A stretch of 56,052 nt of DNA from positions 1 to 56,052 of the IMG/VR virus record IMGVR_UViG_3300005764_000021. One strand, given 5' to 3'. Positions 5,956 to 53,760 of this stretch are shown here, one piece after another. How positions within the stretch are numbered: the first letter of the stretch is position 1; every line of letters starts with the position of its first letter. The DNA is from a virus. Its lineage: Duplodnaviria > Caudoviricetes. The notes beneath the pieces are model-generated. The model did not search any database and was not told the origin of the DNA. It saw nothing but the letters and a program-made list of their open reading frames with translations. Both the position numbers and the translations under genes were made by a program.

Positions 5956-5958
5956 ACT

Positions 5959-7243: not shown

Positions 7244-7262
7244 AACTCAATGGATAAAAAAT

Positions 7263-7349: not shown

Positions 7350-7366
7350 TGATTAACTGAAAAGGA

Positions 7367-7823: not shown

Positions 7824-8103
7824 GTTCGCAAAAAAAGTTTGCCCAGCAAACGCGCGTCATTTCACGGTGCGTTCTCGCATCGGCGCGCGAGTTGTCCGCG
7901 TCGCGCCTGAGTCAAGTTTCCGAAAATGCCAACTCGAGCCCGCATGCCATGCGGGTTTCTTGCACGCGACTCATGCTGAGTCGGAAAATCCAGAAAGTCG
8001 ATTTGCTACACTCGCTGCCGTTGCGTAGGAGGGACACGGCAACAAGAGGGCCCGACCGGCAAAAGCAAGCCGGGCCAAGTTCTTCCCAGGAGTGTCCTAG
8101 GAG

Positions 8104-8592
8104 ATGACCATGGCACGCAAAGTGAAACTCAGCAAGGGTGAGAAAGTGAACCGTGACATCGCGCGGTGGGAGGCTAAGCAAGAGGCCGCAGTGATCATGC
8201 TGCGGAAGTCCGCCGAGGAGCTGGTTCGGCTCCGACGCTGGCGCAAGCGAGAACTCGCACGAGAGACGAAGCGAGCGCTCGCAACGCCGAAACCACCGGA
8301 ACCCACACTGACCGACGGGCTAGACATTCCCGCTTCTTTGGCGCGAGATAATGAGCCTGTGGCGCGGCCGGGCCTGGCACCGCAAGGTGGGGCGCGGCTA
8401 GGTTGTGCAGGGCAAGGCAAGGAGGATCGGGCGAGGCGATTACAAACCTTGCCCGATCCGCGTTCGCCCGAGAAGCGTGCCGAGCGCCGGGCGGTCGAGA
8501 AGGAAGTCCGCCAAGCCGAGCTGACGGGCAAGCGGCGCAAGATGCCGCTCTCAGGTGCTGCCGCCGTGAAGCATATCCGGGAAACTCACTAA
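8104..8592 (+). CDS. basic hypothetical protein containing an in-frame pentamer array
   Basis: AGGAG SD; followed by an intrinsic terminator; contains an LDIPASLAR motif. Confidence 0.65.
   Translation: MTMARKVKLSKGEKVNRDIARWEAKQEAAVIMLRKSAEELVRLRRWRKRELARETKRALATPKPPEPTLTDGLDIPASLARDNEPVARPGLAPQGGARLGCAGQGKEDRARRLQTLPDPRSPEKRAERRAVEKEVRQAELTGKRRKMPLSGAAAVKHIRETH
8361..8422. repeat. GGYNN pentamer array 2 (12 units, 2 imperfect)
   Basis: GGCGC GGCCG GGCCT GGCAC cGCAA GGTGG GGCGC GGCTA GGTTG tGCAG GGCAA GGCAA GG. Confidence 0.85.
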
Positions 8593-8598
8593 CAAAAC

Positions 8599-8633
8599 GG
8601 GCTGCAGCTTTACGAGCTGCAGCCCTTCTTTTT
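8599..8633 (+). terminator. intrinsic terminator of the + strand region
   Basis: GGGCTGCAGCT-TTACG-AGCTGCAGCCC then TTCTTTTT, 6 nt after the stop. Confidence 0.9.
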
Positions 8634-33499: not shown

Positions 33500-33613
33500 G
33501 GCGGTTCTCCATGCGCCCACCGCAAAGGCACGAGACCGCAAACGTGGTCGGCGCGGCGAGCCCGTGCGGTACGGGCTTTTCGGCGGCCAGACCTAGCCGC
33601 GCCGGTTGCTTTG

Positions 33614-35446
33614 TCAGAGTGTCGGGACAGTCGGCAGAATGCCGGTCACGCCGATGTTCGCCGGATTTGGACCTATGATCTGGGTATCGATGCCCCTATC
33701 ATATTGCAGTCTAAACTGGGCTAATACCGCGAATACCCTTAACTGGTTTATGAGGTCAGGAGGATAAAGGACATTAACGCGGTTGGGGTCATTAGGGTCC
33801 CGTTCGACTATAAGGTGCTGTTTGAATGCGGTTAGGTTTTCGACCAAACCGTTCCACATATCCATAACGTATTCCGCAACAAGCTCACCTTTGATGATAC
33901 CCGGGGTGACTATAGCTTGGCCCGGCCCGAAACGAGTCCCATCATCAGCTAGCTTGCACCTAGGATACTTGGACGTTATGACATACCTTTGGTTACGTAT
34001 TAGCCTGGCTAAGGTCGCCAAGGTAGTGACTAATTCATAAGCATCGTCCGTATACCCATATAGGTTAAGCTGGTATGTGGTGGTTTCTCGACTAATCATC
34101 GGCTGGTTATCCGACCCAGCCTTTTGAGTAGCGATGCCATTACCGGCCAGCGAGTTCAGCTCGATGGTATCAAACCGGTCCTGCAACGGCGCAAGCTTCA
34201 CCGTATTGAGCGAGAGCGTCTGCAACGGCCTGGCGGGATCGTTGATCAACGCCCTCTGGGCCTTTGCAACATAGCTGGCGACCCAGTCGCCGATCCATGA
34301 CGGCGACGTCAATTCCACGCCCATGATCGAAGTCACGCCACTGTTGCGGGTCTGGCCGAAGGTCACCAGATTGGCATAGGTATCTCGGCGGGCGGCAAAC
34401 AGATGCCCGTAAAGCTGTCTTCGCCAACCCCAGCGACCTGTATCGCTGAAGCCATATTCCATCTCGAAGACTTGCAGCGAAGTGGAATCGGTGTACGGCA
34501 AGCCGACATATTCGAACGGCTTCTCACCCATATTGCTGATGGCTTGGGTGAAGTCCGGCACGCCGGTGCCGCCGCTGAGAAAGCCTGCAGGCCCAGCCGG
34601 ATTCTGGAACGTCAACGCCGCAGCCGAAGCCGTGGTCGCCACGCTCGTGGTGTAGACGCCAGCGCCGCCGGTCGTGCCGGATTGCTGGTTGGTGATCTTC
34701 GTACCGGCAGGCACGCCGGTGCCCGTGATGACCGAGCCAACCTGAATGTTGCCGGTCACCGCGCTCATGGTCAGATTGATGCCCGAAGCCGTTCCCGTGC
34801 CGCTCGCAGTCGTTCCCGCCGCACCGGCAGGCAGGGCAACGCCAAGGCCTTGCGGTGTTTGCTCGCCGCCAATCGTCCCGTAAAAATTCAGATCGACGCG
34901 GATATCGTTGCCGGTCACGCTCTTCCAGCGACACGTCAGCGTCACCACGCCCGCCGCCGATGTTGCCGTCACCGGCAGATCGGGCCACGTGACATTGACC
35001 TCGTACACGATTGCCGATGCGATGCTGGTCGGCGTGTCCGAGGCCGCGATATTCACCGGCACATGCTGACCGGCGATATACAAATGGATCGTGCCAGCTT
35101 GCAAGTTCGCTGGCGTCGGCACGGTGATTGTGATCGTGCCGCTCGCTGCCACCGCACCGCCGGGCTCGGGGACGCCCAGGCCCCACACCTCGTTCGCGAA
35201 GTTGTTGGCATAAAAACTTTTGAAGAGCCGCGACAGCTCCGAGCCGATGCCGAAGTGATCGTCGGCCTGGCTCTGCGTGCCGACGGCAATCGGCACTTGC
35301 GGCGTCGCGTGGCCGAGCGACGTCATGCATCCAATCAGCAACGAGGGCTGATGGATCATCGGGAGCCCGGCTTGCGAAGGATCGACCTCAACCCAATACA
35401 ACGGGATGCGGAGATCGGCGGGGATGTTGTTAAAGCTAATAGGCAT
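33614..35446 (-). CDS. contractile tail sheath protein (Mu gpL-like)
   Basis: ISFNNIP...PLYWVEVD N-terminus; KLADDG...IVTP...RVNVLYPPDLINQLRVFA C-terminus. Confidence 0.95.
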   Translation of the reverse strand: MPISFNNIPADLRIPLYWVEVDPSQAGLPMIHQPSLLIGCMTSLGHATPQVPIAVGTQSQADDHFGIGSELSRLFKSFYANNFANEVWGLGVPEPGGAVAASGTITITVPTPANLQAGTIHLYIAGQHVPVNIAASDTPTSIASAIVYEVNVTWPDLPVTATSAAGVVTLTCRWKSVTGNDIRVDLNFYGTIGGEQTPQGLGVALPAGAAGTTASGTGTASGINLTMSAVTGNIQVGSVITGTGVPAGTKITNQQSGTTGGAGVYTTSVATTASAAALTFQNPAGPAGFLSGGTGVPDFTQAISNMGEKPFEYVGLPYTDSTSLQVFEMEYGFSDTGRWGWRRQLYGHLFAARRDTYANLVTFGQTRNSGVTSIMGVELTSPSWIGDWVASYVAKAQRALINDPARPLQTLSLNTVKLAPLQDRFDTIELNSLAGNGIATQKAGSDNQPMISRETTTYQLNLYGYTDDAYELVTTLATLARLIRNQRYVITSKYPRCKLADDGTRFGPGQAIVTPGIIKGELVAEYVMDMWNGLVENLTAFKQHLIVERDPNDPNRVNVLYPPDLINQLRVFAVLAQFRLQYDRGIDTQIIGPNPANIGVTGILPTVPTL

Positions 35447-38114: not shown

Positions 38115-39529
38115 CAGTTCGTTTCTTCGTTGAACTGCTGGAACAGGCTGCGCAGTTCGAGCGCGGGCCCGTGCGTGCCGTCGGACATGACCGGAGTTGC
38201 GGTGTAGTGGACGCGGTCGAGCTTCCAGCTCCTCAACGTCGGAGCCGGTGCACCTGGCTTGCCGTCACTACCGGCCGGGCCTGGCGGCCCGCGTTCGCCC
38301 TTGGGACCAGCGATGCCACGCCCGCCCTGGCGGGCAATCATTTTCCAGCCATCGCCCGGCAGTGCTCCCGGATTATCGCGTCGCGCAATGAATGCCGCCC
38401 CGTCGGACACGACAATATCAAGTGCACGATAGTTTTCTTTGGCATCGTAAGTATCGCGGACCGTAGGCGAGACCGCATCTCGTCCGGCGGCAGCGACGCA
38501 AATCCAGTCGAATGTCGCGCCGGGGACCGAACCGGTGTCCTTGAGTGCTTGATAGGTGTTGTTGCCATGGACGACGATCTCGCCTTCATACGTCACATCA
38601 TCTTGCGTCCATCGTTTTACCTTCGGCAGCTTGCCGGGCGCACCCTCGGCACCGCGCGCGCCGGTCTCGCCGCAAGCGCCGTTCACACCAGGCAGCCCGG
38701 GTAACCCTTGCGGACCCGTCGGGCCCGCTTCGCCTTTGTCACCTTTTTCGCCTTGCGGCCCTTTGAGGCCTTGCGCGCCTTCTTGGCCCGGGATGCCGGG
38801 GACTCCTTGTTCTCCGACATCTCCCTTTTCGCCTTTCTCACCGCGCTCACCTTGCTCACCACGCTCACCGACAAAGCCCGGCGGTCCCGGTGGCCCGATT
38901 TCGCCTCGGAGTCCTTGCGGACCTGCGGGACCGGCGTCGCCTTTCTCGCCGGGCATGCCAACGCCATCGGCTCCGCGAATGCCGGGGAATCCGACATCAC
39001 CTTGAGGGCCAATCGGCCCTTGCATTCCTTGCTCGCCGCGTGGGCCGGGCGGGCCCGCTTCACCACGCTCGCCGCGTAGCCCGGACGCACCAACCGCACC
39101 GACCAGGCCGCGCGGGCCTGCAGGACCTTGCGGCCCCGGCAGACCTTGCGGGCCTCGCGGCCCGTCGTCGCCGTCGACGCCGTTAATTCCATCGGCACCG
39201 CGTTCACCGTCACGCCCTGGCGGCCCTACGGATCCACGTTCGCCATCACGCACCAGCGCCAGGCGCTCGGCCACCGCGCGCGCGACCTCGGCGGGCAGAT
39301 TGACGGCCTCGCCGCGCATCTGCACCAAGATCGATTGCGCCCGCGCTTCGATCTGCGCCAGGAATGACTGTACCCGCGCTTCCATCTGCGCGTGCTCGCG
39401 CGTCCAAATCCGCTGCTGCTCGGCGAGCGCCAGCGCTAACGCGTGATCCCAAATTTCAGGATAGGTGCCGCCGATTGATTCGGGCGGCGTTGTCGAAGAG
39501 CCGTTGTGCTGCGCGTCTGACATCGTCAT
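38114..39529 (-). CDS. collagen-like head/neck fibre protein
   Basis: ~200 aa of Gly-X-Y repeats followed by two small aromatic repeats (YEGEIVVHGNNTYQA; YRALDIVVSDGAAFIA). Confidence 0.85.
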   Translation of the reverse strand: MTMSDAQHNGSSTTPPESIGGTYPEIWDHALALALAEQQRIWTREHAQMEARVQSFLAQIEARAQSILVQMRGEAVNLPAEVARAVAERLALVRDGERGSVGPPGRDGERGADGINGVDGDDGPRGPQGLPGPQGPAGPRGLVGAVGASGLRGERGEAGPPGPRGEQGMQGPIGPQGDVGFPGIRGADGVGMPGEKGDAGPAGPQGLRGEIGPPGPPGFVGERGEQGERGEKGEKGDVGEQGVPGIPGQEGAQGLKGPQGEKGDKGEAGPTGPQGLPGLPGVNGACGETGARGAEGAPGKLPKVKRWTQDDVTYEGEIVVHGNNTYQALKDTGSVPGATFDWICVAAAGRDAVSPTVRDTYDAKENYRALDIVVSDGAAFIARRDNPGALPGDGWKMIARQGGRGIAGPKGERGPPGPAGSDGKPGAPAPTLRSWKLDRVHYTATPVMSDGTHGPALELRSLFQQFNEETN

Positions 39530-40889
39530 CTAGTGCTTTCGGAGTTGGTGGCAGCGTTGCTGCCGGAATTCCCGGCGCTGGTGGTCCCGCCGGTGGCCCA
39601 GCCGGATGTTGTCCCGGCAACGCAGGCATTTTGGCCGCGAATGACAATGGAATTTGTTGCTGTTGCATACGTGGCTCGCTGCCTGCGATCACATCATCAA
39701 GACCTTCTTTGTTGCGTGCTTCGTTAGGCGAGAGAATTCCGCCGGTCACCGCTTCCTTGAGTCCACGGATGCGATCCTTGAAATCTGATCGCAGCAGCGC
39801 AGCGGTGTCGAATTCGATGAACTCGTCCGGTTGGCCCTTCAGACCGAGCAGCCGTTCAAAAGCTTGTTCGCAATGATTGAGACAAAAACCGAGTCCAGTG
39901 GCCAGCCAGAACGTCATAAGCGCTTCGGTCGAACCAGCACTGCCGCCGAGCCCGAGCACCGCGAGCGGTATGCGGAACACCAGCGCGATATGCCCTTCTG
40001 CGACTTTCATGATTTCCGCAATCTGTGCATCACGCGGCGGCGATGCCCACGGATTGACTTTGAGCCCATGTGTGAGGATGGGGGTCTTTCCCTGATTGAT
40101 CCCGCGTGACTGCTCGTCCCATCTGTCGCGCAGCGCCGTCACCGTCGCCAGATCGAGCTGCAGGTCGGTCGAGATCACCGCCGAGGGCCGCGCCTGGTTC
40201 TGATAGAACTGCTGCTGCTGCGAATTGATGGAATCGCTCAAAACGATGTCGCTCATGGCCGCGAGCAGCGGCGATTGTCCCCACAACGGGAACGGATTTT
40301 GGCGGCTGCGGTCGGCATGCAAGCGGATGTGCAAGACATCGCGTTGCGGCACCAGGAGCGGTTCTGCGTTAGTCTCGCGCTCGATCACGCTATTGCCGAA
40401 GAGCCGATAAAAAACTTCACCGTTGACAGCGAGCTGCGGCGCGCACAGCCGCGAGTCCATCAGGTGCAGCTCCGAGACCTCGAAGCGAGAGTTGCGCAGC
40501 GCGAGCGCATAAGCATTGCCGTCCAAATATAATTGTCGGACGGCGTTGAGCATAAAGTCCGACGCGGTCTGATACGCGTTCGGCTTGCGCAGGATCCGCG
40601 AGGCTGCGCTGTTGGTGACGCGAGTATTGCCGCCCTTGTCGTTGAGCCGCCACTGATCGCCTTGGCACATGGCGACGGTCTGCGCGTATGCGCTGACACA
40701 CGCTTCGACCATCGCCGAGCGTGCGGGCGATGGAATGACGTTATAACCGAGCTGCCAAAAATTCGTCGGCGAGCCATCGGGCAACCAACCACCCGAAAGT
40801 GGCAGATAATATGGGCCGCTGCGATATCCTCCCTCGACGGCTTTTGCCGCCCAGCGCAGTCCGCCAGCTACAAGCGAGCGCGCTCCCAT
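39456..40889 (-). CDS. portal protein, HK97 family
   Basis: KPNAYQTASDF, LDGNAY, VLHIR, GQSPL, FRIP, LSPNEARNKEGL. Confidence 0.95.
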   Translation of the reverse strand: MGARSLVAGGLRWAAKAVEGGYRSGPYYLPLSGGWLPDGSPTNFWQLGYNVIPSPARSAMVEACVSAYAQTVAMCQGDQWRLNDKGGNTRVTNSAASRILRKPNAYQTASDFMLNAVRQLYLDGNAYALALRNSRFEVSELHLMDSRLCAPQLAVNGEVFYRLFGNSVIERETNAEPLLVPQRDVLHIRLHADRSRQNPFPLWGQSPLLAAMSDIVLSDSINSQQQQFYQNQARPSAVISTDLQLDLATVTALRDRWDEQSRGINQGKTPILTHGLKVNPWASPPRDAQIAEIMKVAEGHIALVFRIPLAVLGLGGSAGSTEALMTFWLATGLGFCLNHCEQAFERLLGLKGQPDEFIEFDTAALLRSDFKDRIRGLKEAVTGGILSPNEARNKEGLDDVIAGSEPRMQQQQIPLSFAAKMPALPGQHPAGPPAGPPAPGIPAATLPPTPKALDDDVRRAAQRLFDNAARINRRHLS

Positions 40890-40923
40890 TCACGTTGGAT
40901 CCATGCTAACGATTTCAGTGTCT

Positions 40924-41030
40924 GGCCCGGCGTGGCAGGGCGGGGCGGGGTTGGGCCTGGTCCGGCGAGGCGGGGTGTGGCAAGGCAAGGCAGGGAGGGA
41001 GCACCGTTTAACGACGGTGCTCCCGTATTT
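40924..41030. repeat. GGYNN pentamer array 3 (14 units) + hairpin
   Basis: Array 40924-40993; stem GGGAGCACCGT-TTAACG-ACGGTGCTCCC 40997-41024; then GTATTTTT. Confidence 0.95.
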
Positions 41031-41051
41031 TTGTATTATGCAATTGCATCG

Positions 41052-41163
41052 GGCCGGGCGGGGTACGGTGTGGCGCGGCCAGGCAAGGTGTGGTGCGGCA
41101 TGGCGGGGCGTGGCGAGGTATGGCAAGGAGGGAGCGCCGTCACAAGCGGCGCTCCCGCATTTT
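41052..41163. repeat. GGYNN pentamer array 4 (15 units) + hairpin
   Basis: Array 41052-41126; stem GGGAGCGCCGT-CACAA-GCGGCGCTCCC 41130-41156; then GCATTTT. Confidence 0.95.
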
Positions 41164-41164
41164 A

Positions 41165-41380
41165 TCACCCAGGCTTCACTTGCCGGGTCTGATAGGTCTG
41201 GGCGGCGGGCTTTTTCTCGGCTTGCATTGCTTTGCTGCCGAGATGCGATTGCTCCCGCGCCTTCGCGTTGGCTTCCTCGAATGGATCCGGTCCCGATCCG
41301 TCGTCTTCGTGTTCGAGAATATGCTCGCCCAGTGCGGCGCGATCATTCTCATCCTGTGTGGGTGTAGGTCTCGGAGGCAT
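41165..41380 (-). CDS. small protein following the major capsid gene
   Basis: AAGGGAG SD; PRPTPTQDENDRAALG. Confidence 0.7.
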   Translation of the reverse strand: MPPRPTPTQDENDRAALGEHILEHEDDGSGPDPFEEANAKAREQSHLGSKAMQAEKKPAAQTYQTRQVKPG

Positions 41381-41450
41381 GTCTCGGCTCCCTTTTGTGG
41401 ACGAAGATTGCGCGGGCGGAGATACCCGCCCGCGTTAGCTTTGATTCGCG

Positions 41451-43853
41451 TTAGGACCAGGTTACGTTCTGGGTCCACGCAACCGTGCCCGCGCGCCGTT
41501 GAATCCAATTCAAAGGCATCACCATCCTTAAGGCGATACTATCTGTTTGGAATAGCGACCTTTGGGGAGCTGCGACCGTGCTTGGAGACGCCACCAATTC
41601 AAGTGGGGTCGTATCTTCCATGTGGAGAGTCGCCTGGTCCGAAGTTTCTAGCCTCGGAGCCCCGCCGCCAACTACGACAAAGTCCGCGGCGTCGACGAGG
41701 ATCATTGTCTTCGCTGGCACCGTTGCCGAGTCGATTACCGGCACCGTATTGAGTGTTCCGCCGCGAATCTCCTCGCGGAACGGGAAGATGCCGGTGTTGG
41801 TCGCCTGCGTCAACGTCACTGCGAGGATGTCCGACGGGTTCATCAGGAACACCGGCGAACGCAGATTGCCGTAGGTACTCACCGTGAGCGCACCGATGAG
41901 CGCCTTGATGTCGCCGATCAAGGCCGCCATGCCGCCGCCCGCCGTCGCCGTTGTCACGGTGACGCCGTTGAGCAGCCCGGCGGGCCGAACCGCCGTCGCC
42001 GCGTTCGCGTCGATCAGCACGCTGTCGACTGCAACGCTGGTGTCTTGCTGGATCGCCTCGCGAATCAATCCCTCGATTGCAGGGATGGAATGATCCGCCA
42101 TCTCACGGGTCCACACGCTGATGACCGCGAGTTTCTTTGGCACGACCGTCTGCGAGGTGAACGCACCTTGCCGCACGGGAATCGCGAGACCTTCGCCGAC
42201 GAACGAGCCTGCGATGGTTGGCGTGCGTGAGCGGGTCGGAATGATGATGCGTCCGGTGTTACCGAAGTTCAGCGTCATTCCTTTTGCTGAGAGTCGCGTG
42301 AGGATCGCGGCGGGCATTAAAAGCGGCATCAGATCGGCGTAATCTGTCTGCACCAGCTCCTGGGCCCAGCCCGCGACTGTCGTGATCGCGGGTGCCGAGG
42401 CCGCACGCAGAATCAGCTCGCACGAGATTTTGGTCTCGTCGTCGCCGTACTGCGGACGTTGCTCCGCGATCTTGAGCCGGGTCTCCTCCAGCGATTTACC
42501 CCACTGCTTGGCGAAGTGTGCGACCGCGCCAGCCCGCACGAGGTAATCGACGTAATCGACCTGATCACGGCGACTCTTCTTGGCCGTTGCGAAGATCGGA
42601 GCGGCTTTCGCGGGCTCCGGCGGCGGCGGCGGCGTGAACACGGTCATCGCGCGGCTCGCCGCGTGCCCGTTGCCGCCATTCACAGACTTGGCCAACAGCC
42701 GCTCCGACTCCGTCAACGCATTGAGCTGCTTCTCGAGCCCGGCGATGGTGGTGTTGAGGTCTGTGGCCTTCTGCATCTGGTCATCGCTGATGTTGGTTTG
42801 ATCAACCGACTCCCAGTGCTCTTCGAGTGCGTCCTTGTTCTCGTTCAGGAGAGCTTGGACGGCAGTGATACGTTCGGAAAGCGGCGTCATGACGCGGCTC
42901 CCATTCTTACGAGACGTTTTGGCATGCTTGCCAGTGAGCCCACGCCGCTCGACCTGGTCTCTATTGCCATGCTTGGCGAAAACCAGGTCCATTGTCGCAG
43001 GACTAATGCCCAGCGATTTGGAAACCGCCAGCGCATTTGCGTTAGCCGGGATTGAAACCAGCGAGGTTTCGACCAGCTCGGCTTTAAGGTATTTGCGACC
43101 GCTGAACGGATTCTTCTTGTCCAGCGGTTCGCTTTCGATATCGCGGAAGCCGACCGAGACGGCCTTTAAGATACCTGCCTCGATTAGCTTTCGAATTTCA
43201 TCGATACGGTTTGAGGTGCCCTCCGGTGCCATTATCAGCTTGCCGCGCAAAGCCCCTTTATCGACCTTTAATCCATCCCATCTGCCGATCGGAAACGAAG
43301 GATTATGATTAAACAATGCGACCGGATTTTTCCTGAACGAGGCGATATCCCAGCCATCGGCCTTGATGATGTCACCCATCCGGTCGATGCTTTCATCCGA
43401 TAGCACGAAGTCCATTCCTTGCACGGTCTCGGCGTGAGTTTTTTGAATAACGCGATGCATGCCGGACGCTCGTTCCTGCGAATCCTCCCATGCCATGCGG
43501 CACAGGTTCTCGGCGCGGTCGGGGTCATCTTCCATACCCCATTCGTCGGCGAGTTCGTCAGTGCATCGGTCCATGAAATCGCTCTCGGATTCGCCCTCTT
43601 CGGGGTCCGGCACGTCGCGATCAACTTGATCGTCATCTTGCTTTGCCGTCACGCGTGGCGCGCTCGCGCCGAGGTCGGCATCGGCGCTCTTCGGTGCGGA
43701 GCCGCCGTGGGCTTCGCGCCAGGCGTTGAAGCACATCGCGACGGCTTGCTCTTGTGTGCGATCTTCCGGCGCGCCTGTGCCGTAGGCCTCGTGCATGCAG
43801 CGAGCCATGAACGCGTCTTGCTTTTCGTCCTTGCGTGGTTTGGGTAACGGCAT
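41451..43853 (-). CDS. prohead protease-major capsid protein fusion (HK97 fold)
   Basis: DRMGD...LFNHN...PIGRW...VSVGF...ETSLVSIPAN protease motifs; coiled-coil scaffold; FVGEG...PKKLA...SLFQTD capsid motifs. Confidence 0.95.
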   Translation of the reverse strand: MPLPKPRKDEKQDAFMARCMHEAYGTGAPEDRTQEQAVAMCFNAWREAHGGSAPKSADADLGASAPRVTAKQDDDQVDRDVPDPEEGESESDFMDRCTDELADEWGMEDDPDRAENLCRMAWEDSQERASGMHRVIQKTHAETVQGMDFVLSDESIDRMGDIIKADGWDIASFRKNPVALFNHNPSFPIGRWDGLKVDKGALRGKLIMAPEGTSNRIDEIRKLIEAGILKAVSVGFRDIESEPLDKKNPFSGRKYLKAELVETSLVSIPANANALAVSKSLGISPATMDLVFAKHGNRDQVERRGLTGKHAKTSRKNGSRVMTPLSERITAVQALLNENKDALEEHWESVDQTNISDDQMQKATDLNTTIAGLEKQLNALTESERLLAKSVNGGNGHAASRAMTVFTPPPPPEPAKAAPIFATAKKSRRDQVDYVDYLVRAGAVAHFAKQWGKSLEETRLKIAEQRPQYGDDETKISCELILRAASAPAITTVAGWAQELVQTDYADLMPLLMPAAILTRLSAKGMTLNFGNTGRIIIPTRSRTPTIAGSFVGEGLAIPVRQGAFTSQTVVPKKLAVISVWTREMADHSIPAIEGLIREAIQQDTSVAVDSVLIDANAATAVRPAGLLNGVTVTTATAGGGMAALIGDIKALIGALTVSTYGNLRSPVFLMNPSDILAVTLTQATNTGIFPFREEIRGGTLNTVPVIDSATVPAKTMILVDAADFVVVGGGAPRLETSDQATLHMEDTTPLELVASPSTVAAPQRSLFQTDSIALRMVMPLNWIQRRAGTVAWTQNVTWS

Positions 43854-43912
43854 GGCAGCCTCCCTCGCGCGCGAGATGCGCGACTAGCATCGGCGGGGAT
43901 TTGAAAGCCGAA

Positions 43913-44083
43913 TTACTTCGACGGCGGTTCTGGTTTTTTGACCAGCTCGGGGAACGCCTTGGCGACGCCCTCGATCATCCGATCCATTTCTTCCCTGGTC
44001 ATGCGGTCGGGCTCGTCGGGGTCTTCGAGCCACGGCACTGATGCCGACGGGATCGGCGGCTTAGGCGGCTTGCGGGACGGCAT
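43913..44083 (-). CDS. small hypothetical protein (56 aa)
   Basis: GAGG SD then ATG 44083, overlapping the end of the upstream gene. Confidence 0.5.
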   Translation of the reverse strand: MPSRKPPKPPIPSASVPWLEDPDEPDRMTREEMDRMIEGVAKAFPELVKKPEPPSK

Positions 44084-46076
44084 GCTCGGCCTCGTATTTC
44101 GCCATCGACTTCTCGTAGTCGGTCGCCACATCCTTGGAGCGACCGCCCATGTATTTGTACAGCACCTTCTCCGGGTTCCACCAGGTGGCCTGCGCCGCCG
44201 CTGGTTCTAGCTTGATGCCCTGCGCCGCCAGCTTGCCGAGCGCCATGTTGAACACGCGAGTGATGTATTCGCGTTGTTCGGCCCCGCGCGGAGCCTCGAC
44301 CATCTTGCCGCCGTAGCTGTCGACGAAGCGCTCGGCGGCATAGACCAGCTCGCTCTTGCTGCGCGCGCCGGATTTGTATTCGGCCTGATGCTCGGCGTAG
44401 TTTTTCTCGTGCTCGTCGTAGACCTCGTTGGCGATCTTGTTGAGCGCTTCCATGCTAGCCGGTGCTCGACGGCCTTCCTCTTTGAGCGCGTTGCGCAGCC
44501 GGTCGGCGATTGGCTCCATGTCAGGCTGACCGACGCCGGTGTTGGTCATGCGGCCCCAGGCGCGCATGAACCAGATGTCCATCGTCAGCGGCTTAAAGTT
44601 GCCGTTGAGGTTCTGATAGAAGCCGAGACCGATCTTCGGGCCGAGCACGGCCGAGCCGTTGACGACATCGTCCATCGATGTTCTGCCGACCTTGTAGCCG
44701 GTGATCTGCTTCAGCTCGCGCACGGTCATCTCCTTGTTGAAGAATGTGCGCGTGCCGTCGAGACCGAACTTGGCCACAAATTTGTTGAGCTTTTCCATGT
44801 TGCCGTTGATGCCGGAATTCTTGACCTTCATGTCGGTGGGGAATTGTCCCGTCCGGCTGAAATGGCTGTAGGCCTCCTCGGCCAGGCGCACGTTGCTGTC
44901 GACGACTTCGCCCTGACTGGTGACCGCCAGCGCCGCGATGTAGGCGAAGTGCTTGTCCGGGTCGCGCGCGATCTCGGGGTGCATGCGCTCGGCGATCTTC
45001 ATCGCCGCTTTCATCTTGTCCGAGTACCAGGTCGGGGAGCTGTGACCGTTGTTCAGTCCGGCCTTGAGATCGGCAGCGATAGCGTCGGCCAGATAGTTGT
45101 CGGTCTCGGGCGTCGACTCTTCGAGCGAGGATTTGCCGAAGCGCTCTTGCAGCACTTTGCCAGCGCGGTCGTTGAGCTGCTGCGCGACGTCGTGGACGGC
45201 AATCGAGTTCGGCTTGGCCGCCGTCGTGCCGATCATGATGCTGTCGGCGGTGAGCGGGTGGGGCCGCGCTAGCTCTTCGCCCCACCGATTATGAATCCGG
45301 TCCCAGGTTGCTTGACTTCCTTGAACCGGGGATTGGCGGATAATTTGCTCATAAGCTCGTCGCGCGTCGTCGCGCTGCTCGCGGTCGCTGCCGGTGTCTT
45401 GCTGGGTGCCGATGAATTCCGCGCGTCCGTGCGTGTATTCAACGGTGGCTGTCCCGGAGGCTTTGGCAACTGCGTCATGGAGCTTTCCATCGAGGTCTGC
45501 GACGTAGACGGTCGCGCCCTTCTCATGGGGAACCAGGGTGTGGAATGCAAGCCCGTCGGCCAGCAAACCCTCGTGGATTTTTTGGATATCGCCGGGGGCC
45601 TCGAACTTGTAGAGCACCGCCGGGCCCGCAGCTTCGCCGCGAAACAGCAGCACTTGCTTCTGGTCGCCGAGGTGGCCCTTCATGGCCCCGGCCAGGCGTA
45701 GCTGGTCCCAGCTCGCACCCTTGGCGACCGACATTACCGAATTCTCTGCACCGTCCTTCCAGGCCCCGATGATGTCGTGGTCCTCGGCCTGGATCCCGAG
45801 TGTGCGGTCGATCTCGCCCGAGGCCTGCTTGAGCGCGCCCTGCCGCTCGCTGCCGAGCGCCTGGTGCGCGAGGTTCAATCCGAGCGTCGCGGTGTTGGGC
45901 GAGACAAACTCGATGCCCTCCTCGTGTGCTCCCGGCCGCGAGCCCTCGAACCTGCCGGTGGTCGGGTCCTGGATGTAGTCGACGTCGCGCTTCTCGTGCC
46001 ACGCCTTGTCCCCTGCGGGATGCCAGTCGAATTTATCGTCATCGCCCCAATGAAAGCGCTCGGCCCGGAATGTCAT
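44061..46076 (-). CDS. two-domain protein; C-terminal HhH-GPD/DNA-glycosylase-like domain
   Basis: WY...LAVTSQ...N...GPKIG...FYQN...TMDIWFMR...QATWW; N-terminal DPTTGRF leader. Confidence 0.7.
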   Translation of the reverse strand: MTFRAERFHWGDDDKFDWHPAGDKAWHEKRDVDYIQDPTTGRFEGSRPGAHEEGIEFVSPNTATLGLNLAHQALGSERQGALKQASGEIDRTLGIQAEDHDIIGAWKDGAENSVMSVAKGASWDQLRLAGAMKGHLGDQKQVLLFRGEAAGPAVLYKFEAPGDIQKIHEGLLADGLAFHTLVPHEKGATVYVADLDGKLHDAVAKASGTATVEYTHGRAEFIGTQQDTGSDREQRDDARRAYEQIIRQSPVQGSQATWDRIHNRWGEELARPHPLTADSIMIGTTAAKPNSIAVHDVAQQLNDRAGKVLQERFGKSSLEESTPETDNYLADAIAADLKAGLNNGHSSPTWYSDKMKAAMKIAERMHPEIARDPDKHFAYIAALAVTSQGEVVDSNVRLAEEAYSHFSRTGQFPTDMKVKNSGINGNMEKLNKFVAKFGLDGTRTFFNKEMTVRELKQITGYKVGRTSMDDVVNGSAVLGPKIGLGFYQNLNGNFKPLTMDIWFMRAWGRMTNTGVGQPDMEPIADRLRNALKEEGRRAPASMEALNKIANEVYDEHEKNYAEHQAEYKSGARSKSELVYAAERFVDSYGGKMVEAPRGAEQREYITRVFNMALGKLAAQGIKLEPAAAQATWWNPEKVLYKYMGGRSKDVATDYEKSMAKYEAEHAVPQAA

Positions 46077-48952
46077 GCAACCAGCCTTGCAACAAAGCGC
46101 TCCGTGTTGGGCGCTTCGCGCGGTTCATGGCTAACGATCTCTAGCCGGGAGTTGCGCGGAAACAATATCTCCGCTTCCTCGGGGAAATTCGAAAGCGAGC
46201 CAACTGGAAACGCCGGACTGCCTTTCGGTACTTGGATTTCGATGTAGCTCCCCGGCTTATCGATCTTCGACTTGTCGAGCGTCGTGCTCATGAAGGCCGG
46301 ATCACTGAATGAGCCCGCATGATCCAGAATATCCTGCGTCCGCTGCCAGCCCACCGTTCGATAGACCGTCACATCGTGCGGTAGCTTGTGGGCGCTCACC
46401 AGCTCATCAAGATTCTCGGTCTCGGCTGACACGGGACCGGAGCCAAGTCGCGCGGGCGCGTTGAACAGGTCGCTGCTCAGCGTATACATATCGAGCGCCT
46501 GCTTCTGTTCGAGCGGAATATCGCTCACCCCCATTTCATCGCGCAGCGCATCCACCTCGCGGGTCGATGCCGTCACGTTGCGGTCTTCACCGCCAAGCGC
46601 CATCGAGCCCAAGTCATCGCCGCCGTCGCCAGCCGTCCACTTTCCAGCTTCATCGCGCGGTTGGTCGGGATCGAACTTTGCGTACCAACTTTTTTTCTTC
46701 GGAGTCTTTTTTTTGAGCGGCGTCACACCGTCAATGGTCTGACCAAGCCACGGATTGGCACGATCCATGTCGAAGAGCCGACTGATCAAGGCCAACGTCG
46801 ATTTGCTGTTTGGCTTGTCGTCGAGTGCCTTGGCTGCCTCTGCTTGCGTCCGCTGCTCCTCCAAAAACATGTTCGCCTGCCGCAACGCGAACTGCCCCTC
46901 GCCGACGGCAACGCCGACACGACCGATTGCGCCGTCGCGCATGTCACCGACGGCGTAAACACCGGGAAGCGGTGTCTCCAGGTTTTTATTGGTTTGGATT
47001 CTGCCGCCCTTGGCGACCGTCACATCCGCAGGGACCCACTTAGTGTCCGGCATGCTGCCGATGAATTCGCCCAGCGCTTTGATCTGCAAAACTTTACCGC
47101 CGACGGTTTCCATGCTTACTGGATTGCCGCGCGCGTCACGATTGAGTTGCTTGATGCTGTCGCTTTCAATCACCGTGATCTTTGGATTGTTGCGCAACGC
47201 CTCAACCTGATAATCGCTCATGCTCTCCACGATGGGTGAGCGCGCCAGCAGGTAGACATGATCGCAGTGCTGCGCACATCCGAGTGCCGCTTGAGCTGCG
47301 CCATTCGAGCCGCCAATCACGCAGACCCTGCCGCCTGCGCCTGCCTTCGCCAACGCCTTGCCATCTCCGATAATCACGCCCGGTCCCTCTGAGCCGGGGA
47401 AGCTCATGCGGCGAAATTCAACACCACCGGCCAAAATGACCGTGCGACTGTCGATATGCTCACCATTGGACAGCGTGAGATGCTTCAGTCCGGTCTTTGG
47501 ATCATAGGTCATCCCCGTGACCCGGATGCCGAGCTTGGCCTCTGCTCCCAAGCGCTGCGCTTGCTCATACATGTTCTGAGTCAACCGTTCGCCGGTTACT
47601 CCAACCGGGAAGCCAGGGAAGTTCTCAATGCGAGAAGAAAACTTGGCTTGCCCGCCAGCGACCGCAGTGGCCTCGACGACCAGCGTATCGAGGCCTTCCG
47701 CTGCGCCATTGATGCTGGCGGCCAATCCACCGGGGCCAGCGCCGATAATGGTCACATCGCGCGGACCACCCGGTAAACCAATTCCACCGGGCCCACCGGG
47801 ATCGGCGTGCAGACCGTGCATCTCCTTAACGATAGCTTCCAACTGATCTACCAGTGCCTGCGACTCGGGGCCGTCTGGCTTGTCCACATGCGCCAGCAAT
47901 TGGTTGTTGATCTTTGCCCACTCGCTCTTGAGCGCTTTGAATTTCTCAACATCGCCCGGCACCAAACCATAATTGCCAGCCTCGCCGCCGCCAGCGCCGC
48001 CGTCGCTGGCGAACTGCCCACCTTCCGGCGATCCAGCAGGTTCGCGCGGATGCTGCGACTCGTCCCACGCGCGCAACAGCTCCAGCAGCATCTTGCCGAA
48101 CGCGGTTTCGCTCGCGGGCTTCTTGCCCTTGCCGCCGGTGAAGATTTCGGCTTCTTCGAGCAGCTTGGTGATCGAGATGTTAACTCTAGCGATCTTGATC
48201 TTGGTGTCGTTGGTCAAGTTGCCGTCGGCGGCATCGAGCCCGAGCTTGCCCGCCCAGTGATGGTGACCGTCGAGGATGTAGTCGTCCTTGGAAATGATCA
48301 GCCGCTTGGCACCCTGGTTGTCGGGCTCTTTCTCCAGGTGGGCCATCACTGCCGCGACCTTGGCACCGTTCAACTCGTTCTGGGTCGCGCGCAGGTTGGC
48401 GGCAAATTCCCTTTCCTTTTTGATTTCGTAACCCTTCCGCTCCAAGTATTTGCGGAACTCTTTGGTCTGCTCATCAGTCAGTTGCGGCATCTGCGCGCGC
48501 GGGATGCCTTTGGTCTCGGCGCAGAACAGGTTGGTGCCCGCCACGCTCACATCGCAGAGATTGAACACCGGCGCTTGCTGTCCTTGCTTCTGCCAGCGCT
48601 GGGCTTCCTCACCCAGCTTCTTGATCAGCGTCGAGACTTGTTTCGGCTGCGTCAGCTCGACCTTGCGGCCTTCGTACAGTGCGCGCTGCGCGTCAGCGAC
48701 CTTCGAGGTGTGGATGACGCCGTGCGCATCGACATAGGCGTCCTTGCTGTAGCCCTCGCCGGGATGCTCGCGCTCAGCATCTCCTCCACCGCCGCCGCCA
48801 TCACTCGTGAACTGTCCGCCTTCCGAGGATCCTGCGGGTTCGCGCGGGTGAGCCGATTCGTCCCAGGCGCGCAGCAGCAGCTCGAAGCTCGGCAGCGGTG
48901 CCGAGAGATCGCGCCAGACCTCGGCGGTCATATCCGCAAATAAGCCAGCCAC
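46073..48952 (-). CDS. polyvalent protein: ParB/Srx-like + thioredoxin-reductase-like flavoprotein + ADP-ribosyltransferase
   Basis: ISKDDYILDGHHHWA; IIGAGPGG...GGQA...IENFPGFP...GVYAVGD; VYR...FMSTT...EAEILFPR (R-S-E triad). Confidence 0.85.
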   Translation of the reverse strand: MAGLFADMTAEVWRDLSAPLPSFELLLRAWDESAHPREPAGSSEGGQFTSDGGGGGGDAEREHPGEGYSKDAYVDAHGVIHTSKVADAQRALYEGRKVELTQPKQVSTLIKKLGEEAQRWQKQGQQAPVFNLCDVSVAGTNLFCAETKGIPRAQMPQLTDEQTKEFRKYLERKGYEIKKEREFAANLRATQNELNGAKVAAVMAHLEKEPDNQGAKRLIISKDDYILDGHHHWAGKLGLDAADGNLTNDTKIKIARVNISITKLLEEAEIFTGGKGKKPASETAFGKMLLELLRAWDESQHPREPAGSPEGGQFASDGGAGGGEAGNYGLVPGDVEKFKALKSEWAKINNQLLAHVDKPDGPESQALVDQLEAIVKEMHGLHADPGGPGGIGLPGGPRDVTIIGAGPGGLAASINGAAEGLDTLVVEATAVAGGQAKFSSRIENFPGFPVGVTGERLTQNMYEQAQRLGAEAKLGIRVTGMTYDPKTGLKHLTLSNGEHIDSRTVILAGGVEFRRMSFPGSEGPGVIIGDGKALAKAGAGGRVCVIGGSNGAAQAALGCAQHCDHVYLLARSPIVESMSDYQVEALRNNPKITVIESDSIKQLNRDARGNPVSMETVGGKVLQIKALGEFIGSMPDTKWVPADVTVAKGGRIQTNKNLETPLPGVYAVGDMRDGAIGRVGVAVGEGQFALRQANMFLEEQRTQAEAAKALDDKPNSKSTLALISRLFDMDRANPWLGQTIDGVTPLKKKTPKKKSWYAKFDPDQPRDEAGKWTAGDGGDDLGSMALGGEDRNVTASTREVDALRDEMGVSDIPLEQKQALDMYTLSSDLFNAPARLGSGPVSAETENLDELVSAHKLPHDVTVYRTVGWQRTQDILDHAGSFSDPAFMSTTLDKSKIDKPGSYIEIQVPKGSPAFPVGSLSNFPEEAEILFPRNSRLEIVSHEPREAPNTERFVARLVA

Positions 48953-50908: not shown

Positions 50909-51016
50909 CGTTTGTTGCCGGTGTTTTTGTGCAACGTCGTTTGGTCAGATCAAACGACCCTCCACGCTAGAGATACTCGCCTGGTCGCTCACTTCCACGT
51001 AAGATTACGATCTTGC

Positions 51017-51122
51017 GGCTGGGCGTGGCGCGGCTGGGCTTGGCACGGTCCGGTAGGGCTGGGCAAGGCTGGGCAGGGCAAGGCAGGGGGAAAGCGCCGT
51101 TCACAGCGGCGCTTTCCATTTA
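51017..51122. repeat. GGYNN pentamer array 5 (14 units) + hairpin
   Basis: Array 51017-51086; stem GGAAAGCGCCG-TTCACAG-CGGCGCTTTCC 51089-51117, 2 nt from the capsid-paralogue stop codon. Confidence 0.95.
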
Positions 51123-52208
51123 TTTCCAGGCTGGCGTTAACCAAGCGATTCCCGCTGCGTTTCTCAAGCTCCAAGACATCGGCCATTTGGTCTTGATGGC
51201 AATGGTTTCCGTTTGGAACAAGCTCTTGTGGGTGCCGGTGCTGCCGGGGTCGGCGACCGGCGCAGTGTCCATGTGCAGCGTGCCAGCATTCGCGGCCTCG
51301 ACTTCGAGATCGGGCGACAGCGCCGCCACCAGCGCGGCGTGGGCAATCGCGATGATGTCGCCGCCGACGGCGCTCGATGCGTAGATGTGATAGGGCGCAT
51401 CAGCCTCGTGGTAGATGCGGCCGATGAAGGTCGCGGCCCGGCCGGGCGACATCACCAGGCAGTAGGGCCCAGCGCCGCCGACCGCCGCCACCGCATTGAT
51501 CAGGTTCACCAAGTCCTCGAACGCCGCCGCGAAAGAGTCGGCATTGTTGGATGCCGTCAGCGCGGCAATGCCGCTGCGCAGGCCTGCGGGCTGCGCCGCA
51601 GTCGCGGCGGCCGTACCGAACAGCGCCGCGTCGAGCGCGTAGCCGCACGAGCGCACCAACGCGTCGCCGATGATCTGCTCGGCGTTGCCGCTCTCGATCA
51701 TCTCGCGCGAGAGCACCGAGATCGCCGCCAGCTTGTAGGGCAGCATCTGCACCGCCGCCGAGGCGAGCTGCCGCACCGGAATCGGGCCGCCTTCGGCAAC
51801 GAAGCTCGCGGAGCTGGCCCCGGCCACGATGCCAGGCGCGCTGATGACGCCGTTGCCGTCCCAGGCCAGCACCAGGCTTTCGCGCAGCACCTGTGCGCCG
51901 GCGCTCACGGGCCCCATTGCCGCCAGCGCCTGCACCACGACCGTGCGCACCAACTCCTTGGCCCAGCCGGTCACGCTGGTCATGGCGGGCGCGGACGCCG
52001 CGCGGTTGACGATCTGGTCATGCGGCCAGCGTTCCTGCGCGATCAGATGGGCGCGCGTGTGCTGCAGGCTCGCAATCGCCTTCGCCGTCACCAGCCGGAT
52101 GAAGGCGTTGCCGTCGTCGGGAAGCGGCGGGGTCTTGCGAAACGATTGCACTTGCACGTTGCCATAGCGCTCGCGTGGCACTCGTTCCGACCAGTCGGTG
52201 ATCGTCAT
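51120..52208 (-). CDS. major-capsid paralogue 2 (HK97 fold, no protease domain)
   Basis: Start moved to ATG 52208 (CAGGAG SD); RAASAPA...GWAKELV, FVAEGGPIPVRQ, KLAAIS, SLFQTE align with the MCP. Confidence 0.9.
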   Translation of the reverse strand: MTITDWSERVPRERYGNVQVQSFRKTPPLPDDGNAFIRLVTAKAIASLQHTRAHLIAQERWPHDQIVNRAASAPAMTSVTGWAKELVRTVVVQALAAMGPVSAGAQVLRESLVLAWDGNGVISAPGIVAGASSASFVAEGGPIPVRQLASAAVQMLPYKLAAISVLSREMIESGNAEQIIGDALVRSCGYALDAALFGTAAATAAQPAGLRSGIAALTASNNADSFAAAFEDLVNLINAVAAVGGAGPYCLVMSPGRAATFIGRIYHEADAPYHIYASSAVGGDIIAIAHAALVAALSPDLEVEAANAGTLHMDTAPVADPGSTGTHKSLFQTETIAIKTKWPMSWSLRNAAGIAWLTPAWK

Positions 52209-52222
52209 CGTTGTTGCTCCTG

Positions 52223-52276
52223 AAAAAAGAAGGCGGCGACCCTTTCTGGCAGGGGGGCAATCAGCGAGCCGCCGCC
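52223..52276 (-). terminator. putative intrinsic terminator/attenuator upstream of capsid paralogue 2
   Basis: On -: GGCGGCGGCTC...GGGTCGCCGCC stem with a long loop, then TTCTTTTTT running into the next SD. Confidence 0.6.
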
Positions 52277-52295
52277 GCGCGGGGTAAAACACCCG

Positions 52296-52716: not shown

Positions 52717-53760
52717 TCACCAATTCGTCGTCGTCATCCAGCCCACGCCGCTGGCCGAGCGCACGCCCCAGGCCACCGGCAGTTTGACCATGATGCCGAT
52801 ACAGTCAGTCTGCCAGATCGATTTCGTGGGCGGGCTGCCGTCCGGGGCCGTGTCCATCTGCACCGCAGCCTCGCGGCTGGTCGCCATGATCGTCGGCGTG
52901 TCGCCGAGCACCGAAGCAATATTGTTGGGCGCGACCGCAATCATGATCATCGTGCCGCGCAACGCCAGCGAGCCGAGAAAGCTCAGCGGGCGCACGCCAT
53001 GCTGGCTGCGCAGATCCGCCAACAGCGCGCGGGTCGTACTGCCGATGAAGATCGGCTGCGTCGAACTCACCGGCGCGACCACGCGATGCAAGGTCTCGAT
53101 GTCGGTCATCAGCGCCGCCACCGGATCAGGCGCGGTGCTGGCCGTCGATGCCGCCACGCCATAACGCAAGCCCGCCGGTCGAGCTGCGCTGCCCGCAACA
53201 TCGTCAAACAACGCAGTGTCGAGCGCAAGCGCGGCCGAGCGCACGAGCGCATCCAGCATCAGCGCTTCGATGTTGGAGGACTGCACCATCTCCCGCGTCA
53301 AGATCACGATCACCGCAAGCTTCTTCGGCACCAGCGTGATCAGCGGCTCGACGTGACCCTGCTGGATCGGAATTGAATCGCTTTCCTTGACGAAGAAGGC
53401 ATAGGCCGAATCGCCGAGCAGCGTCGGCACCGAGATTTGCCCGGCATGATCGAAGTTGAGCTGCAGGCCTTCGCGGAATAATTTCGCCGCCGCCGATTGC
53501 GGGGCCAGCGCCGCAAGAAAGTCCGGCATGACCGTCCGCAGCAGCGCCGGTGTCCCCGCCATGTCCGTCGGTGCCGTCGGTGAGCGCAGCAGCCACGGCA
53601 GGCTGGCGTCGTTGCTCCACATCCTGCGCGCCACCTTCTCAGGTGAAGCGCGATCATAAGCGCCGACAGCAGCAGCAACGCACGCACGCGTTAAGCTCAC
53701 CACTGAGGGCCGCTGCGACGGCTGCGATGTCATCGGAATGAGAGCCGGTGCTGTAATCAT
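52717..53760 (-). CDS. major-capsid paralogue 1 (HK97 fold, no protease domain)
   Basis: FVKESDSIP, PKKLAVIVILTREM, RPAGL, SIWQTD...W align with the MCP; ATGA overlap with terL. Confidence 0.85.
   Translation of the reverse strand: MITAPALIPMTSQPSQRPSVVSLTRACVAAAVGAYDRASPEKVARRMWSNDASLPWLLRSPTAPTDMAGTPALLRTVMPDFLAALAPQSAAAKLFREGLQLNFDHAGQISVPTLLGDSAYAFFVKESDSIPIQQGHVEPLITLVPKKLAVIVILTREMVQSSNIEALMLDALVRSAALALDTALFDDVAGSAARPAGLRYGVAASTASTAPDPVAALMTDIETLHRVVAPVSSTQPIFIGSTTRALLADLRSQHGVRPLSFLGSLALRGTMIMIAVAPNNIASVLGDTPTIMATSREAAVQMDTAPDGSPPTKSIWQTDCIGIMVKLPVAWGVRSASGVGWMTTTNW

Follow-up and report, generated by a model that had tools for sequence, protein, structure and literature searches.

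We analyzed a virus record of 56,052 bases from IMG/VR (IMGVR_UViG_3300005764_000021; this whole stretch of DNA is called the window) and found that it carries five arrays of five-base units, A1 to A5 (Table 1). Judged by their sequence, the array modules are very probably genes for vrRNAs, the guide RNAs of the VIPR system, with the G-rich strand as sense and a hairpin of their own as the end. One of the guides, A1, appears to target the portal gene of related soil phages with Bradyrhizobium-like hosts, at codons 29-40. Enterobacterial and Pseudomonas phages were the source of the first description of VIPR, in 2026. The main text of the preprint presents it as a CRISPR-like DNA silencer, in which the vrRNA consists of 9-16 GGY/NN units and a constant structured tail and reads double-stranded DNA with its NN pairs at two of every three bases (bioRxiv 10.64898/2026.04.26.720920). 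Vipr, the protein of this system, is described in the main texts as a small Cas7-like protein (bioRxiv 10.64898/2026.04.26.720920, 10.64898/2026.04.26.720927).

In the five-base register NN-GG-Y, with the G-rich strand read as sense, GG was present in 75 of the 77 units of all five arrays and GGY in 70 of them, and the NN positions were variable. GG was kept in each of the 64 units of A1 to A4. Every array closes with one to three constant units, and A1, A3, and A4 share two of them (AAGGC AGGGR). A scan for period 5 on both strands of the whole contig detected at least 9 of 12 phased GG at five places only, and 36 matches were obtained with seven phased GGY, compared to 0 with the reversed pattern. 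The arrays are far beyond chance. Their 13-18 units agree with the tandem GGY-NN units of vrRNAs, for which at least 4 units are required and 9-16 are typical. A5 and its hairpin sit in an uninterrupted frame of 162 codons at 8104-8592 (+), the flanks of which look protein-like. A two-way terminator-like hairpin at 8599-8625, the next such site after the A5 tail, comes after the stop of this frame.

An earlier note on this DNA had placed a tandem pair of modules between a capsid unit and the portal gene and a third one after a capsid paralogue, and its coordinates and gene labels were correct. The hairpins of these modules, A1 to A3, are the three top-ranked terminator-like sites of the + strand between 38000 and 54000. 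On this strand they have the form of an intrinsic terminator, a GC-rich stem-loop with a T run directly after it, and on the mRNA strand they do not. This agrees with the order given in the note, which was array, hairpin, and T-rich tail on the + strand, with no U tract after the hairpin on the mRNA strand. The claim that the stems covary was also borne out. Over 10 stem pairs all 30 cells of the three modules are paired, and 3 of the 10 pairs are changed on both sides (two G-C pairs became A-U, and one A-U pair became G-C). In a control 21 of 500 shuffles did as well as these stems. We consider the covariation to be real, with the modest support that three sequences can give. A constant structured 3' tail like that of vrRNAs is thus a feature of A1 to A3; A4 has no strong hairpin and A5 has another one. 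In a contig of soil run X6 the end of A2 (41128) is joined to the start of A1 (40920) with four other letters between them, which may reflect a varying copy number or order of the tandem modules or else a loop in the assembly. A 36-mer of the A1/A2 junction had 0 matches in the metagenome contigs.

The link to Vipr came from other viruses. A search pattern derived from the shared array end, GGYNNGGCNNGGCAAGGCAGGG, was run on IMG/VR and matched at least 118 records. The arrays at these loci are often in tandem and often end in a hairpin or directly before a start codon. When the open frames of 118 fetched loci were clustered, a family of proteins of about 213 amino acids was present in 73 of them. 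A profile of 46 sequences of this family, which corresponds to no Pfam family, matched chain D of PDB entry 36pp, 'SUSP1 Vipr protein', with E=1.9e-48. Among the other 45 records, 12 encode Vipr outside the fetched locus, which gives 85 of 118 among the matches listed. The arrays of the window and the vrRNAs linked to Vipr have the unit code and the constant end units in common. In two of the IMG/VR loci (L001, L011) a tRNA-like 3' half with the T-arm motif GGTTCGA(C/T)TCC directly follows the vrRNA array, a layout which suggests that arrays are placed beside tRNA genes.

Guides were decoded as NN-x-NN-x, that is with two bases read and one skipped, and every position was scored; 80% is the match level used in the papers. 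In relatives that had been fetched through their capsid protein, independently of the guide, A1 reached 22 of 26 positions at the same portal site in two relatives. None of 100 shuffled guides reached this value (maximum 20). Nine relatives cover the portal start, and in every one of them, as in the window, the best A1 site lies at an offset of 84 nt in the portal gene and spells LP-x-S/T-GGWLPDG. Since the site is aligned in frame 0, the skipped bases of A1 fall on wobble positions. At the peptide level, only A1 was above the controls when all decoded guides were scanned, and A3 was marginal.

An exact scan of IMG/VR with nine A1 units returned 20 loci, and eight of these are portal genes of this phage family with 64-68% identity and the same synteny. 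Two of the eight (L164, L172) match all 24 positions of the 12 leading units, one (L156) matches 23 of 24, and the five others match 22 of 24. A1 thereby has a target above 80% under a one-base skip with wobble-phased skips, as vrRNAs do. The last three units of A1 were never matched at targets and are therefore regarded as a constant handle. With a one-base skip the score was 24/24, compared to 17-18 for skips of 0, 2, or 3, a comparison that is partly circular because some of the loci were fetched by that rule. The other twelve loci (L154, L155, L157-L160, L162, L163, L165, L167, L171, L173) belong to another phage group and carry the motif KYDRGGWLPDGVTAAVNQTG. They match the nine A1 units exactly and nothing beyond (20/26), and the motif GGWLPDGV is, therefore, common to a second protein family.

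Within 201 genomes of the genus Bradyrhizobium, the A1 site was found at 21/24 in three, and the reversed control gave one match. All three sites are in prophage portal genes with the same order of capsid gene, a gene for 71 amino acids, and portal gene. A1 units 3-12 had 0 matches in genome contigs. Taken together, A1 is likely to be a working guide against the portal genes of rivals.

No site in the window reached 80% for any of the guides. The phage's own portal gene matches A1 at only 18/24, compared to 24/24 in rivals, and a lower match to self than to rivals is the behavior of solo vrRNAs. The six differences fall in four of twelve codons, and two of these codons show synonymous switches between codon families (Ser AGC to TCG, Leu CTC to TTG). 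A3 spells the last codons and the stop of the neighboring capsid paralogue in frame, and its match is equal in self and relatives (20/26), so that the lower match to self is not seen for this guide. Further scans for the other guides were negative. A2 units 7-15 matched three IMG/VR loci without extension, and all 15 units with up to 3 mismatches had 0 matches in the 201 genomes. A3 units 5-13 matched one locus in IMG/VR, which was no better target; units 4-11 matched 10 loci there, with the homologous gene only in L128 (19/26), and units 3-11 matched 11 loci in metagenome contigs, none of them with a capsid homologue. A4 units 4-13 had 0 matches in IMG/VR. A likeness of A4 to the Pro-rich C-terminus of a neighboring frame at 7172-7218 needs indels and was not counted.

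These results bear on the proposal of the earlier note that the modules mark the 3' ends of antisense small RNAs. It comes close in form, with small RNAs off the strand opposite the late genes that would end at the hairpin and T tail; the order on the G-rich strand is that of an RNA ended by an intrinsic terminator, and this strand carries the GGY/NN code read by Vipr. Antisense regulation of the usual type does not fit, as the variable bases decode to a DNA target in other phages.

The single best self-match, with both strands searched and all units scored, lies 175 nt from the guide gene for A1, 82 nt for A3, and 372 nt for A5, and each of the three is in frame with a neighboring open frame (Table 1). 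A hand estimate that assumes about 1.4% for each guide puts the chance of three of five best matches within 400 nt near 3e-5. Because the best self-matches are close and in frame, these guide genes appear to adjoin the phage's own diverged copy of the target. In the main texts of the preprints we found no guide beside its own target allele. It is possible, if rather doubtful, that a guide and the recoded, immune allele travel as one cassette that spreads by marker exclusion. In a mixed infection or a lysogen, borrowed Vipr loaded with A1 would silence the portal gene of the rival, and recombination would allow escape only if the resistant allele was gained together with the guide gene. Such a cassette would spread through the phage family like homing-endonuclease genes, and earlier rounds would have left the decayed arrays that are seen in the A3 slot of two relatives.

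The slots of the arrays were compared in twelve relatives that keep the gene order; they had been found by their capsid fusion protein (48-66% identity). The gap between the 71-amino-acid gene and the portal gene is about 40-200 nt long in the relatives vs. 275 nt here, and after the capsid paralogue most relatives have a gap of about 10 nt, vs. 211 nt here. In two of the relatives (L128, L125) the gap at the A3 slot is long and contains, on the same antisense strand, a hairpin, a T tail, and period-5 arrays that have decayed. These decayed copies indicate that the A3 slot is old and that arrays decay where they are not kept, and next to them the intact arrays of the window look maintained.

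Several observations weigh against the assignment as vrRNA genes or against their function as guides. A two-hexamer promoter scan found no promoter at any of the five arrays. A -10-like box is present 6-10 nt upstream of A2, A3, and A5 only, and at A1 and A4 even such a box was not found. The tails of A1 to A3 differ from the pseudoknot tail of the SUSP1 vrRNA and from the tails of four Bradyrhizobium VIPR loci. The tail motif AAGGCAGGGRGRRAGCRCCG had 0 matches in IMG/VR, where no other record has the same tail, so that compatibility with any known Vipr is conjectural. A convincing target is at hand for one guide of five only. Even for A1, the fetching scan required nine matching units, so that only three further units are independent at the loci with 24/24. 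A3 reached 19-20/26 (77%) in relatives and likewise in self, and 4 of 100 shuffles equalled this. For A2, A4, and A5 the 1.4 Mb of fetched loci gave no match above the controls. Neither Vipr nor arrays are present in two relatives whose genomes are complete, with terminal repeats (73.7 and 67.2 kb), and the sampled lineage, therefore, yields no cognate protein. Since no vipr gene is present in the 56 kb, the guides are solo on the DNA in hand; a completeness of 77% (CheckV) leaves this status unproven, and we regard it as probable.

The search for Vipr in the record was extensive. The best value of hmmsearch at maximum sensitivity over all six-frame pieces of the record was E=1.2. A search of the whole record that read through stops gave 0 matches and no remnant, and the same type of search recovered 5 of 5 Vipr genes that had been held out of the profile as a positive control. 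An hhalign comparison of 208 window pieces with the Vipr alignment also gave nothing, in a global mode that is a poor test. In a protein atlas the frames 7367-7741 and 8104-8592, between A4 and A5, were not RAMP-like: the first is a small helical protein with a weak winged-helix likeness, and the second is a frame without usable match that could not be folded. Five records of cousins that bear the A1 target, all of them fragments, showed no Vipr.

The alternative that survives best is an ordinary VIPR-positive phage, which has its vipr gene in the missing part of the genome (about 23%) and whose own guides are merely dispersed. The record is linear, and complete relatives measure 67-74 kb. Of five near-complete IMG/VR records that seem to lack Vipr, three have their arrays close to a contig end (about 2.6 kb or less), a sign that assemblies may break at VIPR loci; these records do not show that phages without Vipr are common. 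Here, A3, A4, and A5 are 5-8 kb from a contig end. In each of the five Vipr-positive records that we looked at, vipr and the arrays share a strand and are no more than about 1 kb apart, without any dispersed array, whereas the arrays of the window occupy four internal places over 44 kb and both strands. The two complete relatives without Vipr also speak against this alternative, as do the solo vrRNAs on VIPR-null phages reported in the main text of a further preprint (bioRxiv 10.64898/2026.10.15.759431). We consider a missing vipr gene to be unlikely. The absence of a vipr gene beside the arrays places them with the solo vrRNAs and not outside the vrRNA kind. The arrays are not at the site of a deleted vipr-vap1; they occupy intergenic gaps of the late region, which in most relatives measure 10-200 nt.

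If the guides are solo, Vipr would have to come from another element. Relatives of the tail sheath (70-74% identity) are found in genomes titled Bradyrhizobium and in Xanthobacteraceae assemblies, and relatives of capsid and portal are also present in Bradyrhizobium genomes. The capsid-fusion protein had no relative in genome contigs. A Vipr gene is present in 2 of the 5 genomes with the sheath relative and in 17 of the 201 genomes of the genus Bradyrhizobium, and supply of Vipr in trans is possible because the likely host genus encodes it. In the four Bradyrhizobium VIPR loci that were fetched (L207-L210), one vrRNA directly follows vipr, with a tail unlike those in the window. No more than about 25 nt separate the vipr stop from the start of the vrRNA-like array, which has about 11 units where it is intact and is interrupted in two loci. 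These arrays end in GGAGA, and L207 and L209 have two hairpins and almost the same guide.

According to the assignment as vrRNA genes, the window would contain five separately transcribed genes, each for an RNA of about 100 nt, and the hairpin with its U-rich end would terminate and cap the vrRNA. Following the published mechanism, Vipr protomers would bind the GGY triplets and present the NN pairs, which would silence transcription by pairing with two of every three bases of double-stranded DNA. The guides could be loaded by Vipr from the missing quarter of the genome, or in trans by Vipr from a resident prophage or a co-infecting phage. The phage's own portal gene, recoded at four of twelve codons, falls below the 80% level. 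Transcription, loading by Vipr, silencing, and the benefit to the phage are steps that we infer.

Arrays that are relics of lost VIPR loci and have no function would account for the lack of Vipr in the record, for the two broken units of A5 inside an open frame, for the decayed arrays in the A3 slot of relatives, and for the four of five guides that have no target at 80% or more. We regard this as quite improbable. GG is kept throughout A1 to A4, unlike in the copies of L125 and L128, the pairing of the hairpins is kept through compensatory changes, and A1 still matches living portal genes at 24/24. In addition, the A3 region is identical in a contig of another soil run (record 22; this comparison covered contigs of four soil DNA runs, which gave fragments only and speak to presence).

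Similarly low is the probability that the RNAs are decoys, which soak up or misdirect the Vipr of a rival and have no silencing of their own. As stated in the main text of the preprint, solo vrRNAs of satellites redirect the VIPR of their helper to decoy sites (bioRxiv 10.64898/2026.10.15.759431), and no target was found for A2, A4, and A5 in our searches. A pure sponge would have no need for the specific target that A1 has in an essential gene of rivals, in phase with the wobble positions.

The guides might also regulate the phage's own neighboring genes (portal, capsid paralogue) by imperfect pairing, as a device for timing or dosage. This would explain why the best self-matches of A1, A3, and A5 are only 82-372 nt from the guide gene and why A3 matches its own neighbor as well as any relative. 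The self-matches of 69-77% are under the 80% level, and A1, perfect on rivals and poor on self, has the pattern described for anti-rival solo guides in the main text of the solo vrRNA preprint (bioRxiv 10.64898/2026.10.15.759431). We hold such self-regulation to be very improbable.

It is extremely unlikely that the modules are Rho-type or step-down terminators on the late mRNA that set the capsid:portal ratio, which the earlier note had given as one of two alternatives: the arrays do lie between late genes with a rut-like composition on the mRNA strand (C about 55%, G 20-23%), and relatives have a sense-strand hairpin with T tract in the gap between the 71-amino-acid gene and the portal gene, but the GGY is conserved on the other strand in a strict 5-nt phase that is needless for a rut site, the same arrays occur beside vipr genes with the G-rich strand as sense and in either orientation to neighboring genes, A4 and A5 are far from capsid genes, the hairpins lack a U tract after them on the mRNA strand, and A1 decodes in frame to the portal gene. 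The hairpins may have some side effect on the late mRNA.

The phage is of the myovirus type (Table 1). Genes for a collagen-like fiber, a baseplate hub, and an endolysin are also on the - strand, and small + strand genes together with a DpdA homologue occupy the first 9 kb. The gap with A1 and A2 is bounded by the portal gene and the 71-amino-acid gene that follows the protease-capsid fusion, and A3 is directly after the capsid-fold paralogue at 51120-52292. Three capsid-fold genes are present, one of them fused to a prohead protease. The portal gene is placed after these three and not directly after the terminase gene, an order that is kept in relatives including Bradyrhizobium prophages. Within the block of head genes, between the capsid paralogues and the protease-capsid fusion, 46073-48952 (-) encodes a protein of 959 amino acids with an FAD-dependent pyridine nucleotide-disulphide oxidoreductase domain and a C-terminal ADP-ribosyltransferase exoenzyme domain (PF03496); relatives retain only parts of it. 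The gene at 5607-6776 (+) is DpdA-like or queuine tRNA-ribosyltransferase-like, which suggests 7-deazaguanine modification of the phage DNA. A scan with Rfam gathering scores found no family at the modules. Its sole match was an int-alpA motif at 33536-33603 (-; 40.9 bits vs. the gathering score of 35.8), just downstream of the tail sheath gene and not near an integrase. The match prompted us to consider the adjacent gene at 33614-35446 as an integrase, which was rejected, as this gene encodes the tail sheath. A blastn search of 39400-44000 against INPHARED phages gave no match, and a literature search on pentanucleotide repeats yielded nothing relevant.

Table 1. Arrays, tails, matches, and genes of the window, and decayed arrays of two relatives.
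Feature	Position	Strand	Remarks
A1 array	40922-40996	+	15 units, 15 with GG
A1 guide part		+	first 12 units; the 24/24 target matches end after unit 12
A1 constant 3' part		+	last 3 units, AAGGC AAGGC AGGGA
A1 tail	40997-41033	+	10-pair GC hairpin 40997-41024, then GTATTTTTG
A2 array	41050-41129	+	16 units, 16 with GG; target not found (see text)
A2 tail	41130-41165	+	10-pair hairpin 41130-41156, then GCATTTTAT
A3 array	51015-51089	+	15 units, 15 with GG
A3 tail	51089-51127	+	11-13-pair hairpin about 51089-51117, then ATTTATTTCC
A4 array (vrRNA-like)	7262-7351	-	18 units, all with GG; then TTTTTTATCC, without strong hairpin
A5 array (vrRNA-like)	8359-8423	+	13 units, 2 broken; inside open frame 8104-8592
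A5 tail	8424-8459	+	13-pair hairpin GGATCGGGC...GCCCGATCC, unlike the A1-A3 hairpin; without T tail
-10-like hexamer TATTAT	41034-41039	+	10 nt before first A2 unit; without -35 box; weak promoter call
-10-like hexamer TAAGAT	51000-51005	+	9 nt before first A3 unit; weak
-10-like hexamer GATAAT	8347-8352	+	upstream of A5
Own allele of A1 target	40771-40805	-	portal codons 29-40, LPLSGGWLPDGS; 18/24
Best self-match of A3	51118-51155	-	last codons and stop of capsid paralogue 51120-52292; 20/26 over 13 units, 23/30 over all
Best self-match of A5	8006-8037	-	15/22; 17/26 over all units; in frame with open frame 7912-8181 (-), a putative gene
Large terminase	53757-55364	-	
Capsid-fold paralogue	52717-53760	-	
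Capsid-fold paralogue	51120-52292	-	
Protease-capsid fusion	41451-43853	-	
Portal gene	39456-40889	-	adjoins A1/A2; homologues in related phages bear the A1 target
Tail sheath	33614-35446	-	
Decayed arrays, L128	641-1328 of L128	opposite late genes	about 600 nt; many units reduced to NNRGC or NNGNC
Decayed arrays, L125	4330-4552 of L125	opposite late genes	many units reduced to NNRGC or NNGNC

The data suggest that soil phages of Bradyrhizobium-like hosts use the same RNA code as the phages in which VIPR was described. The guides are scattered and separately terminated, without a vipr gene in the DNA in hand, and at least one of them appears to target the portal gene, an essential structural gene, in cousin phages and has the recoded portal gene of the phage itself as its neighbor. 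The switches Ser AGC/TCG and Leu CTC/TTG would be an escape from a code that is blind to the wobble position, with those two residues unchanged. If the linkage of guide and immune allele was general, the targets of vrRNAs could be predicted from the neighboring gene in relatives, and it would provide a testable model of the spread of guides and of exclusion among phages of one family. If the phage DNA contains modified G, as the DpdA gene suggests, this might bear on the pairing by VIPR.

The tails of A1 to A3 resemble intrinsic terminators in that, on the G-rich strand, a GC hairpin precedes a run rich in T. They differ in that they would close a small RNA gene and probably also cap its 3' end, and in that the late genes lie on the other strand. 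Phage mini-CRISPR arrays and RNA anti-CRISPRs are cases in which the virus carries the RNA part only and the proteins are encoded elsewhere, like the guides of the window. They differ from these guides in the RNA code, the protein family, and the mode of action, which would be silencing without cleavage for the guides.

Going by the main texts of the preprints, the type II vrRNAs of SUSP1 (bioRxiv 10.64898/2026.04.26.720920, 10.64898/2026.04.26.720927) share with the window arrays the tandem GGY-NN units, the length of about 100 nt (predicted for the window), the invariant GGY, and the variable NN. Further likenesses are the constant structured 3' end, the decoding with two bases read and one skipped, the skips on wobble positions, and the targeting of competing phage elements. 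Unlike the SUSP1 vrRNAs, the window arrays have no vipr or vap gene beside them, and their tail is a plain hairpin with a U-rich end, whereas the tail of SUSP1 is a pseudoknot. The window arrays are also dispersed over both strands, are antisense in the late operon, and have up to 18 units.

Hundreds of solo vrRNAs are reported in the main text of the third preprint from VIPR-null enterobacterial phages and satellites (bioRxiv 10.64898/2026.10.15.759431). The solo vrRNAs of VIPR-null SUSP1-family phages and F5 satellites are, by this account, like the guides of the window in the lack of Vipr on the same element, the lower match to self than to rivals, the wobble-aligned guides, and the proposed supply of Vipr from another element. 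The published solos are located at a deleted vipr-vap1. Their targets are vipr genes, other vrRNAs, or satellites, or else they serve as decoys to host repeats. The guides of the window, in contrast, occupy four unrelated gaps, and at least one, the gene of which stands beside the phage's own recoded allele, appears to target the portal gene of cousin phages. The host would be a soil alphaproteobacterium for the window phage, compared to Enterobacteriaceae for the published solos. The vrRNA kind has thus been in print since 2026, and, measured against the main texts of the preprints, the dispersed solo arrangement, the structural gene as target, and the linkage to an immune allele are new.

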